Shown here: positions 13,816 to 16,178 of the stretch, one piece after another
How positions within the stretch are numbered: position 1 is the stretch's first letter
Layout: each line of letters opens with the position of its first letter
Source: Methanococcus aeolicus Nankai-3
GTDB taxonomy: Archaea > AGJL01 > Methanococci > Methanococcales > Methanococcaceae
Assembly (NCBI RefSeq): GCF_000017185.1
Contig: NC_009635.1
Location: 248,563-312,562, forward strand
DNA length: 64,000 nt
Direction of reading: 5' to 3'
The notes under the pieces: generated by a model
What the model was told of the DNA's origin: nothing
Seen by the model: the letters and a program-made list of their open reading frames with translations, nothing else
The model's database searches: none
Translations under genes and position numbers: made by a program

Positions 13816-15336
13816 ATGAACAAAATCGGTGTAGTTTATGAGGATACGGGAATATCTGAATGTCAAATAATGTGTGATAAAAAAATAAGATTCGGGGAGT
13901 TTGTATTACTTAAAAATATTGACAATATTGAGGTATTGGGGATTATTAAAAATATTAGGGCAAAAGATGATAAATTATTGGGCGTAGTTTCCATCGTGGG
14001 AGCCCTAAATGGACAAAATTTACTTCCAAATAGAAGTCCAATAAAACCAAATAGTGAAGCACTTTTAGGGGATGATTCAATATTATCTAAATTATATTAT
14101 GATAATAAAGGTTTAAATGTGGGGCATCTATTAACACGGGATTCTGTAAGAGTGTATTTAAACACAAATAAACTTATTTCAAGGCATTTTGCAGTTTTAG
14201 CAGTCACTGGGGGAGGTAAGTCAAACACAATTGCAGTATTATGTAGGGAGCTCGCAAAAATAAATGCCACAACTGTAATAATAGACCCGCATGGGGAGTA
14301 TATGTCAATGAGTCATGAGGATATGGAAGGTAGATTAAATCCTATGACTGCAAAATTAGACCCTTCAATTATGTCTCCCTCAGAATTTGCAGATTTAATA
14401 GGACTTAAAGAAGATAATAGAAAGGAAAGAATATTCTTAAATATGGCATTCCATACGATAAAGTAGAAAGAAAGGGAGGAATATAAAAAACAGTATCGAG
14501 GTAAAGTGTTTGTTGAACAAATAATGGATTTAATTGGTGAATGGGCAAATAATTCTATTGTTGGATGGGAAGTAAAATATTACAATCACATAAAAAATAA
14601 ATATGGCAGTAGGAAGTTGGATAAAGAAGACACAGACACATTGCTTACTGTGTTAGATGCTATTGGAGATTTTGAAGCAGGTTTTTCGGCAAATATTACC
14701 AAAGGAGATATTATTGAGAATTTTCAAAGGGGCAAATTAAATATAGTTGATTTAAGCGGTTTTGAAGTAAATCAGATGGTAGCATTAGTTTCATATATTG
14801 CAAAACAGCTTTTAACAAATAGAATTTCATATGCAAAATCAAAAAGGGATTTATACAATCATGATGAAAAGATACGGAGCTCCGCGAGAAATACGATGTA
14901 CCAGTTGGAATCCAAATTTCCAGCACTTACAAAACCAATTGTTATGATTGTTGAGGAGGCACATATATACATTCCAAAAAATAAGGAAACCGATGCCTCA
15001 TACTGGCTCGGAAAAATAGCAAGAGAGGGCAGAAAATTTGGAATAGGTTTGGGAATAATCTCACAGCAACCAAAAAAATTAAACGAAGATGTTTTGAGCC
15101 AGACAAATACAAAAATTATACTTAGAATAGTAGAACCAGAAGACCAAAAATATATCCAAAAAGCTTCTGAGGATTTAGGGGAAGATTTAGTAAAAGACCT
15201 TACATCACTTGGCATTGGTGAGGCGGTGATTACAGGAACTGCAATAAAACTTCCTGCAATAGTTAAAATTGATAAATTCGATGGGGCATATGGCGGAGAG
15301 GATATAAACATTTATGAGGAATGGAACGAGTTATGA
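13816..15336 (+). pseudogene. HerA/DUF87-type ATPase (MJ1429-like) interrupted by a single in-frame TAG at 14464-14466
   Basis: ORFs 13816..14466 and 14506..15336 are in the same frame, and the 39 nt between them are open. HAS-barrel-like N-terminus, Walker A VTGGGKSNT, Walker B MIVEEAH, GLGIISQQPKKL. Either a nonsense pseudogene or a read-through gene. Confidence 0.8.
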
Positions 15337-15416
15337 TATAGCTATTAATTTTTTCAATGAGAAATATGTATAATGAGTTAAATAAATATTGGGCGATATT
15401 AGTAAAGGTGGGATAT

Positions 15417-16178
15417 ATGAAAAAATCATTTCTCCTGTTAATTATTGCAACATTGGTAATTTCAAATGCCCATGCAATAGTGGGGGATGTATTTGAGGAT
15501 TATAATTCTTCATTTGATACTTCTACAAGTATATATTTAGGATATAATTATACTCCTGATATGAATTCTACGGAATTGGATGAATAGATTAATGAGCAAG
15601 GTAGTGACCATTCATGGGCATATCATATATTACAGCAGGACGACGACAGCTTTAGATTTGAAGTTGGATATTAGATATGGAAGGACAATACTTCAAAATA
15701 TACCGTTAAACTTTATGGGAATACAACAGAAGGTGATGTAAGTTCAGTTGGTATAGTGTTCCCTTCGCTTGAAATGGAAAAAGATAAGACCTATCAAATT
15801 GAAATGTCATTAAATGGTTCCGATTTTGAGCTATTTGTTAATGGTGAAAAATATAATGCATCAGGATACCTACAAATAAGATATGCAAATGGTTCAAGTG
15901 GCTGGGAGTCTTTCAAAAATGGGAATATATCCTTAGGGAATTTCTCATTAAGAAATGGGGACCAGGGTCTAAAATCTAATATTACTGGATGGGATGATCA
16001 ACATTTGGGCAGCCATCCTTTTACAAATATATCAGTTCTTGATGCAAATATATTGGGTGCAGGGGATAATACTCCAAATACGCCCGTAAAATCTCCCGCG
16101 CCATATGGTGCAATTATCATGTCCATAGTGATAATTACCACGATAATAATGAGGGATAATAAATGGATAAGAAATTAA
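15417..16178 (+). pseudogene. surface protein with an N-terminal signal peptide and a C-terminal TM anchor, interrupted by two in-frame TAG codons (15585-15587, 15672-15674)
   Basis: RBS AAGGTGG upstream of ATG 15417. Signal peptide MKKSFLLLIIATLVISNAHA. ORFs 15357..15587 and 15756..16178 share one frame, and the gap is open except for the two TAGs. C-terminal hydrophobic anchor GAIIMSIVIITTIIM. Confidence 0.55.

Follow-up and report, generated by a model that had tools for sequence, protein, structure and literature searches.

Three in-frame TAG codons interrupt two adjacent genes in a 64,000-nucleotide stretch of DNA from Methanococcus aeolicus Nankai-3 (the 64-kb window analysed here), and comparison with homologous genes suggests that they very probably mark young nonsense pseudogenes, or null alleles, and not a special decoding of TAG. 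The first gene encodes a HerA-type hexameric ATPase/helicase and the second a secreted surface protein. An earlier note on this DNA had left the choice between clustered nonsense mutations and partial read-through, and had proposed an alignment with orthologs as a check. In that alignment the TAGs replace Gln (CAG), Trp (TGG) and Trp (TGG), so the nonsense half of the proposal stands, as changes of sense codons, and no positive sign of read-through or of a suppressor emerged for the other half.

The HerA-type gene (DUF87 and HerA_C) spans positions 13816–15336 on the forward strand and comprises 506 codons with one interruption. The only stop within this frame is the TAG at 14464–14466 (forward strand, codon 217), and the 39 nucleotides that follow as far as a GTG at 14506 are open. 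The Walker A motif (TGGGKSNT, 14206–14229) lies 5′ of the TAG and the Walker B motif (VMIVEE, 14941–14958) lies 3′ of it, both on the forward strand, which confirms the earlier description of a gene split by this TAG alone, in one frame, between its two Walker motifs. The position of the TAG falls in a length-variable part of the alignment between Walker A and Walker B. The frame aligns colinearly with the full-length homolog P0001 (89% identity) with no frameshift, and the orthologous codon in the nearest relatives is CAG, encoding Gln (L001, L002 and L095–L100; 89–90% identity).

Judged by its sequence, the interrupted frame belongs to the HerA helicase family, with an N-terminal barrel, a RecA-like core containing Walker A and B, and HerA_C, colinear with known HerA. 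The best NCBIfam match is helicase_HerA (NF040819; residues 52–505, 434 bits), under the 970-bit equivalog cut-off, and the nearest solved structures are PDB 9x1l (E = 2.5e-88) and the HerA structure 4d2i. The precomputed Pfam domains of its homologs are PF01935, PF09378 and PF05872. The frame resembles archaeal HerA, the helicase of HerA-NurA DNA-end resection (PDB 4d2i, 9x1l), in the order of these domains and in its 40–60% sequence identity to Methanocaldococcus and Thermococcus HerA; it differs in being interrupted by a stop, in its score under the equivalog cut-off, and in having no adjoining nurA, mre11 or rad50. None of these three genes adjoins HerA in the window, and the HerA neighbours in relatives are likewise others: in M. 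aeolicus and its relatives HerA is preceded by a gene for a TPR protein and followed by the surface gene or TraB.

A homolog search with HerA returned 695 proteins at E ≤ 0.001, and lengths were noted for the best 120 of these, every one of which is 493–577 amino acids long, with no split HerA among them. No HerA from a named Methanococcus or Methanothermococcus species was present among the top matches listed. A query of reference-genome contigs with the single HerA protein found no orthologous locus, and a query with the HerA alignment found distant Thermoplasmata and cyanobacterial HerA-like genes, with no Methanococcales among the matches listed. To judge from the top protein matches listed, named Methanococcus and Methanothermococcus species other than M. 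aeolicus appear to lack HerA. The HerA-NurA system is associated with thermophiles, is missing in Haloferax volcanii, and is dispensable in Thermus and Deinococcus (PMC7776575).

The HerA dN/dS is 0.08 both 5′ and 3′ of the TAG, and all 115 columns that are invariant among 14 homologs are retained (115/115), so that the lesion must be of very recent origin unless the gene remains in use. We estimate the age of the lesion at below about 1% neutral divergence. The TAG-bearing strains lie 0–1 SNP apart in the interrupted genes, too few differences for testing relaxed selection after the lesion.

The second gene (15417–16178, forward strand; 253 codons, two interruptions) encodes a secreted protein with a signal peptide (15417–15476, forward strand), a beta-rich body and a C-terminal transmembrane anchor (16083–16175, forward strand). 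Its first TAG (15585–15587, forward strand, codon 57) occupies the place of a Trp found in seven of seven homologs, and its second (15672–15674, forward strand, codon 86) that of a Trp in six of the seven and a Tyr in the remaining one; both codons are TGG in L083 and L084. The codon after the first TAG is ATT (Ile), where the seven homologs have an invariant Val (GTT/GTC), so that TGGG now reads TAGA and the stop has gained an A at +4. The protein is colinear with the full-length homolog P0121 (64% identity) and free of frameshifts, which upholds the earlier account of a gene with two TAGs and otherwise one frame from signal peptide to anchor. Alignment to full-length homologs likewise bears out the claim that neither gene is frameshifted, and because both frames align colinearly throughout, they are real interrupted genes and not chance ORFs. 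Only seven homologs of the surface protein were found among 5.8 billion proteins; a look-up of the Methanotorris surface protein P0126 gave no contig. The protein has no family match in Pfam or NCBIfam, and its AlphaFold2 model, built from an eight-sequence alignment, is beta-rich and of low confidence (mean pLDDT 53.6), unfit for a fold search. An intact partner gene of 136 amino acids, p136 (16163–16573, forward strand), overlaps the end of the surface gene and has a weak match to the archaeal pilin N-terminus; the pair is kept in L083 and L084.

The surface gene, p136, ablA and ablB form a 3.9-kb block (15337–19289) that is missing between HerA and TraB in the nearest relatives. At the same junction a sister population carries an unrelated Laminin_G_3 surface gene, in which 40 substitutions separate contigs that carry identical HerA genes. 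Gene order and sequence here mark the HerA/TraB junction as a hot spot of variable insertion. The Laminin_G_3 gene has an allele with TAG in L096 and another with TGG in L099, which by their sequences represent a segregating nonsense polymorphism caught in the act.

The three TAGs were present in five further read sets or assemblies besides the window. Two Logan assemblies, of SRR9434581 and SRR9434582, match the window at 100% identity and a third, of SRR253113, at 99.97%, and the same split genes occur in the Logan assembly of ERR14827887 and in the PacBio genome of PL15/Hp (CP104873.1), an independent Lipari isolate with 38 tRNA genes (PMC10113651). The isolates that share the TAGs come from different oceans, but the segment has 0 SNPs over 15.5 kb, so this sharing carries little weight against a young origin of the pseudogenes. 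The TAGs were found only in near-identical M. aeolicus genomes; the corresponding codons of sister-species orthologs and homologs are CAG and TGG.

TAG is also used to end genes in the window. Among 60 ORF ends, TAA accounts for 47, in keeping with its earlier description as the dominant stop, TAG for eight (two of them internal) and TGA for five; of the 58 genuine terminators, TAG makes up six and TGA five. The five TAG terminators that the earlier note had listed are genuine, and a sixth lies at 60468–60470. The genes concerned encode beta-RFAP synthase, shikimate kinase, RadB, a CBS protein, FlaD/E and a DUF357 protein, all six stops coincide with the ends of family profiles, and the TAG of the CBS gene is kept in the sister species. 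To judge from these genes TAG is a working terminator in the window, neither rare nor avoided, and full codon reassignment is indeed unlikely. A search for suppressors found no tRNA-CUA and no pyl genes within the 64-kb window, where the sole tRNA is Ser-GCU. Nor did context-dependent read-through gain support: no significant RNA structure was found 3′ of the three TAGs (folding z-scores of −1.06, −1.52 and −0.71), the A at +4 is the one trait that their contexts have in common, and the stops are unconserved outside M. aeolicus. No further interrupted genes were found in the window. In Archaea, read-through has been demonstrated only for selenocysteine and pyrrolysine (PMC8211752).

All three lesions are TAG followed by A, and all are single G:C>A:T transitions, CAG>TAG in HerA and TGG>TAG twice in the surface gene. 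Transition-nonsense targets yield TAG in 11 of 23 cases in HerA and in 10 of 21 in the surface gene, which gives a post hoc probability of about 0.11 for three TAGs out of three. In a further count, TAG made up about 0.37 of transition nonsense targets. TGG and CAG codons are followed by A with a frequency of 0.37, so that the chance of an A after all three stops is about 0.05, again post hoc, and about 0.02 for four sites if L096 is included; the four in-frame stops of the lineage, in three genes, are each TAG followed by A. The three in the window are confined to 4.4% of its coding sequence, with zero elsewhere. Set against the mutational targets, the all-TAG, all-A pattern is only weakly unusual. 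A local burst of G:C>A:T hypermutation was rejected, as it is not seen in HerA, where directional substitutions number 80 versus 67, like the TPR control (117 versus 90), nor in the surface gene (60 versus 65). None of the three TAGs lies in a MaeI (C^TAG) restriction context. A further TAG in L095 that seemed to lie in frame proved to mark a normal bacterial S7/EF-G gene boundary.

In the explanation that we favour, the nonsense substitutions would have arisen recently in the M. aeolicus lineage and become common to its known strains, inactivating two dispensable genes, each of which belongs, by its distribution among relatives, to a patchily distributed accessory family. HerA would be an end-resection ATPase of thermophile-associated function that a mesophilic methanogen is losing, and the surface gene would encode a fast-turnover cell-surface protein at a hot spot of variable insertion. 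Translation would end at each TAG, as it does in the six genes of the window that have TAG as their terminator, and the truncated products would be non-functional. The genes would be otherwise perfect merely because the time since the lesions has been too short for more decay, and the all-TAG outcome would reflect G:C>A:T pressure on TGG and CAG codons, given how an AT-rich genome mutates. Fixation may have been neutral or favoured, for example by the loss of a surface receptor. What counts against young pseudogenes is that both genes look flawless apart from the TAGs, with no frameshifts apparent despite abundant A/T homopolymers. The clustering of three stops in two genes also requires relaxed selection on precisely that pair, and HerA and the surface gene, not being syntenic in relatives, show no obvious functional link. 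A functional linkage as the cause of the clustering was considered and is unsupported, as the two were never neighbours in any relative examined.

A similar situation has been described in Bacteria, where in-frame stops form part of a wider prokaryotic pattern of common, short-lived polymorphisms (Belinky et al., 2021; PMC7918605). As in those cases, the stops in M. aeolicus are single substitutions in genes that look selected, the worked example of that survey also being CAG/TAG, and only very closely related strains share them, the next relatives retaining the sense codon (Belinky et al., 2021; PMC7918605). M. aeolicus differs in being archaeal, the survey being bacterial, and in having three TAG-A stops in two adjacent genes (Belinky et al., 2021; PMC7918605).

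The alternative that survives best, although we consider it unlikely, is leaky termination at TAG in the M. aeolicus group, brought about either by a suppressor tRNA or by near-cognate decoding that a following A promotes. HerA and the surface protein would then be made at a low level in full length, and nonsense alleles would be tolerated or used for lowering expression. Belinky et al. argue for read-through of many prokaryotic in-frame stops (PMC7918605). Such leakiness is in line with the finding that every in-frame stop seen, three in the window and one in L096, is TAG-A, with the new +4 A created at 15585–15590 where the invariant Val became ATT, with the intactness of the genes in all other respects (HerA dN/dS of 0.08 past the stop and 115/115 invariant residues), and with the occurrence of the alleles in Nankai-3-like, PL15/Hp and ERR14827887 data. 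Against it, the replaced residues are unlike each other, Gln in one gene and a (near-)invariant Trp in the other. Near-cognate decoding of UAG inserts Gln, Tyr or Lys, according to eukaryotic and bacterial work, and would leave Trp unrestored. The stops are unconserved in sister species, six genes end normally at TAG, one such stop being conserved across species, and the window has neither a tRNA-CUA nor downstream structure. The signal is statistically weak, its probabilities being post hoc, and archaeal read-through beyond Sec and Pyl is undemonstrated in the literature (PMC8211752). The specific proposal that UAG-A ends translation inefficiently, with TGG>TAG and CAG>TAG alleles acting as expression-reducing “dimmers” and not as knock-outs, is similarly doubtful, although it would account for TAG-A at every one of the four in-frame stops, which lie in three genes that are perfect in other respects. 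If it were true, this would be the first archaeal stop-codon read-through besides selenocysteine and pyrrolysine, and M. aeolicus would supply natural reporter sites.

It is more improbable still that HerA now works in two pieces, a 216-amino-acid N-terminal part with the barrel and Walker A, and a 276-amino-acid C-terminal part with Walker B and the arginine finger, re-initiated at GTG 14506. The TAG does fall in a length-variable alignment stretch that is gapped in Methanocaldococcus homologs, and purifying selection is equal on both halves. A candidate weak restart site for the C-terminal fragment (14497–14508, forward strand) consists of a Shine-Dalgarno-like GAGGT, AAA and the GTG, which is derived, being AGA in sister species. 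This motif is, however, only 3 nucleotides from the GTG, closer than at the real HerA and surface-gene starts, and the dN/dS signal is for the most part older than the stop. Walker A and Walker B would end up on separate chains, an arrangement for which the best 120 of the 695 homologs offer no precedent. The surface-gene stops would also be left unexplained, as the parts downstream of them have no signal peptide.

Genetic-code expansion, in which TAG would encode pyrrolysine or another fixed amino acid, has next to no probability. Pyrrolysine decoding of UAG is found in Methanosarcinales and Methanomassiliicoccales. The M. aeolicus case shares with it an in-frame UAG within an otherwise intact methanogen gene, and a radical-SAM lysine mutase gene (17082–18407) lies 1.4 kb past the last TAG. 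That gene, however, is the lysine 2,3-aminomutase AblA (LAM_C domain), 100% identical to the M. aeolicus protein that bears this annotation, with the GNAT protein AblB encoded next; it is not PylB. The window has no tRNA-CUA or pyl genes and uses TAG freely as a terminator, ending six genes normally. The interrupted genes are not methylamine methyltransferases, there is no conserved catalytic Pyl position, and the ancestral residues are Gln in HerA and Trp in the surface gene, so that TAG has no single recoded meaning. Base-calling errors or DNA damage could in principle leave substitutions unaccompanied by any other defect, and mutations could have been acquired in a single laboratory culture, but sequencing or assembly error and culture mutation are alike refuted by the same three TAGs in the four Logan assemblies and the independent PL15/Hp genome.

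Variable surface-protein islands with loss-of-function alleles are known from bacterial phage-receptor and antigen loci. The HerA/TraB junction resembles them in being a single chromosomal site at which genes are present or absent and alleles replace one another, in divergence faster than that of the flanks, and in segregating nonsense alleles (L096 TAG, L099 TGG). It differs in that its surface proteins are uncharacterised and are not known to take part in virus infection or to act as receptors. For annotation, the interrupted frames are better treated as pseudogenes than as four separate small ORFs. At face value the finding is an ordinary one, of two freshly inactivated accessory genes, and if young nonsense pseudogenes are the right reading, M. 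aeolicus would offer a clean case of how young nonsense alleles appear ahead of decay.

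The HerA-type ATPase gene is a single frame of 506 codons (13816-15336) whose only stop on translation is the TAG at 14464-14466 (codon 217). Walker A (TGGGKSNT, 14206-14229) precedes this TAG and Walker B (VMIVEE, 14941-14958) follows it, as the earlier note had described. The adjoining surface-protein gene was also correctly read as one frame; 15417-16178 translates as 253 codons, from an N-terminal signal peptide to a C-terminal hydrophobic anchor with a basic tail, interrupted by TAGs at codon 57 (15585-15587) and codon 86 (15672-15674). The proposed ortholog alignment places Gln under the TAG in HerA and Trp under both in the surface gene. 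The best HerA homolog (P0001, 89% identity, from an ENA metagenome) and the second best (P0002) have Gln at this position, and the window's AAG TAG AAA corresponds to AAG CAG AAA in the sister-species loci L001 and L002. Seven other metagenome loci (87-90% identity) encode an uninterrupted HerA. In more distant homologs the residue is R, H, K, Y, N, L or W, in a stretch of variable length, and HerA of named Methanococcus or Methanothermococcus species was not found among the top matches listed. The surface protein has only seven homologs in a collection of 5.8 billion proteins, with Trp at the first site in all seven and at the second in six (Tyr in the other), and two relatives (L083, L084) carry TGG at both sites. 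Judged from these codons, all three lesions are single G:C>A:T transitions. At the first surface site, the neighbouring invariant Val codon likewise shows G>A (TGGG>TAGA), which could reflect a single multi-nucleotide event or chance. 3′ of two TAGs, A>G differences from the relatives yield G-rich, Shine-Dalgarno-like GGGAGG (14474-14479) and GGAAGG (15681-15686), opposing the AT mutational bias.

Most likely, these are recent nonsense mutations at which translation would simply terminate, leaving two accessory genes as young pseudogenes or null alleles that became fixed in the nearly clonal M. aeolicus lineage. The earlier note had weighed independent nonsense mutations against read-through. 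The ancestral CAG and TGG codons and the normal use of TAG as a stop favour the former. Within the window, TAA is indeed the dominant stop (47 of 60 ORF ends, with TAG at eight, two of them internal, and TGA at five). TAG is also a genuine terminator, as had been claimed, since six genes end at TAG where their family models end: beta-RFAP synthase (model positions 1-327 of 327), archaeal shikimate kinase (1-266 of 266), RadB (1-209 of 210), a CBS-pair protein whose TAG is conserved in the sister species, FlaD/E and DUF357. No further split genes turned up in the 64 kb when all six frames were searched for open segments separated by a single in-frame stop, and the genes neighbouring the locus are complete by comparison with their family profiles. 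No gene remnants were found in the larger intergenic gaps; one stretch of 1.2 kb without a plausible ORF (33341-34555) runs from tRNA-Ser(GCU) to the first archaellin gene. Within the archaellum operon (34556-46614) lie three tandem 214-aa ORFs (36687-38737, period 703 nt), the first two with identical 3′ ends and downstream sequence.

Leaky read-through, in which the TAGs are decoded as amino acids, is unlikely, and only two observations support it, the first being the pristine state of the interrupted genes. Against its sister ortholog in L001, HerA has dN 0.050 and dS 0.64 (dN/dS 0.08; 0.082 before the TAG and 0.076 after), and the neighbouring TPR gene has dN/dS 0.14. All 115 columns invariant in 14 HerA homologs are kept; had these codons drifted neutrally, the absence of changes would put divergence since inactivation at an estimated <~1%, from 3 / (115 codons × about 2.3 non-synonymous sites). 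The surface gene has changed at eight of 69 homolog-invariant columns (one stop and seven conservative replacements), comparable to the 7 and 12 changed in equally distant intact homologs. G:C>A:T changes are not locally enriched. From these comparisons, either the lesions would be very young or the genes would still be under selection.

The second support is the TAG-A pattern, every stop being TAG with A as the next base, to which the earlier note had drawn attention. Among codons one transition from a stop, TAG would result at 11 of 23 HerA codons and 10 of 21 surface-gene codons (0.37 window-wide), giving a post hoc probability of about 0.05-0.11 for three of three. A follows TGG and CAG codons at a frequency of 0.37, or about 0.05 for three sites, again post hoc. 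The pattern itself holds at all three sites; each probability is unremarkable singly. Confinement of the stops to 4.4% of coding sequence is non-random, and would be expected from relaxed constraint on two dispensable genes. Leaky read-through is further opposed by the replaced residues, Gln and Trp, which argue against any single recoded meaning, by the lack of conservation of the in-frame stops, and by normal termination at TAG. RNA folds 3′ of the TAGs do not exceed shuffled controls in stability (z -1.06, -1.52, -0.71), and stop-codon read-through in Archaea is known only for Sec and Pyl (PMC8211752).

A two-piece HerA, with translation restarting at GTG 14506, is very improbable. Pyl-type recoding is close to negligible; the suggested CUA-anticodon suppressor tRNA or pyl genes did not materialize within the window, where Ser(GCU) is the sole tRNA (ARAGORN, Rfam). 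A nearby radical-SAM gene (17082-18407) was rejected as a pyl gene, being AblA (100% identical to M. aeolicus lysine 2,3-aminomutase) with the GNAT partner AblB. Artefact is equally negligible, refuted by independent data sets. Agreement with the window is 100% for the Logan assemblies of SRR9434581 and SRR9434582 and 99.97% for that of SRR253113 (three gap differences, 0 base mismatches). In the PacBio sequence of PL15/Hp (CP104873.1), a strain isolated from Lipari (PMC10113651), HerA (216 + 276 aa) and the surface gene are split in the same way, with 0 differences from the window over 11053-23754. Both genes are split likewise in an ERR14827887 contig, which differs by one synonymous SNP in HerA (14397), one SNP in ablA and a 3-nt intergenic indel. 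Because the same lesions recur in independent read sets and PL15/Hp, the TAGs are genuine and common to all available M. aeolicus genomes, which at this locus are too similar to gauge selection. Upstream, over 6973-11052, divergence from PL15/Hp is a mosaic (1.8% in the LeuRS gene; 10065-10316 heavily rearranged; scattered SNPs up to 11052, then 15.5 kb with 0 differences), suggestive of recombination between strains. Contigs of SRR9434582, SRR253113 and ERR14827887 all stop at 24117, among short intergenic AATTGCCTTA-type repeats, probably a genomic repeat.

The locus context bears on the dispensability of these genes. HerA is part of a system associated with thermophilic archaea, and elsewhere it is either non-essential or missing (PMC7776575); the title of the species description calls M. 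aeolicus mesophilic. The closest relatives have the gene order TPR-HerA-TraB-CBS-RFAP, and HerA directly adjoins TraB (L001, L002, L095, L097, L098 and L100 compared). The metagenome contig L095 also carries bacterial-type ribosomal protein S7 and EF-G genes (345-2939) and is probably chimeric. An M. aeolicus-specific 3.9-kb insertion between HerA and TraB (15337-19289) holds the surface gene, a 136-aa gene, ablA and ablB. The 136-aa gene (16163-16573) overlaps the surface gene end, is its conserved partner, also in L083 and L084, and weakly matches an archaeal type IV pilin N-terminus (E 0.011). In relatives, this pair is found in yet other contexts, and ablAB lies elsewhere (L102-L106), beside McrBC, M20 peptidase and ribosomal-protein genes.

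Two contigs of a sister population encode, at the HerA/TraB junction, an unrelated surface protein (Laminin_G_3) whose C-terminal anchor is similar. The L096 allele (6560-7426) has one in-frame TAG at 6869-6871, followed by A (TGG GCT TAG ATT), where the L099 allele (7386-8240) has TGG. These alleles differ by 40 substitutions (dN/dS 0.55), and the adjacent HerA genes are 100% identical. The otherwise unrelated window (16083-16175) and L099 proteins share a C-terminal module, PV[K/R][S/T]P.P followed by a TM helix and basic tail, which matches no Pfam or NCBIfam model and may be a sorting signal. Prokaryotes are known to carry in-frame stops as short-lived polymorphisms (PMC7918605), and the M. 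aeolicus TAGs are a further instance. Given the TAG and TGG alleles, their fast divergence and the variability of the junction, the HerA/TraB junction is a hot spot of fast-evolving, dispensable surface-protein cassettes with segregating nonsense alleles.
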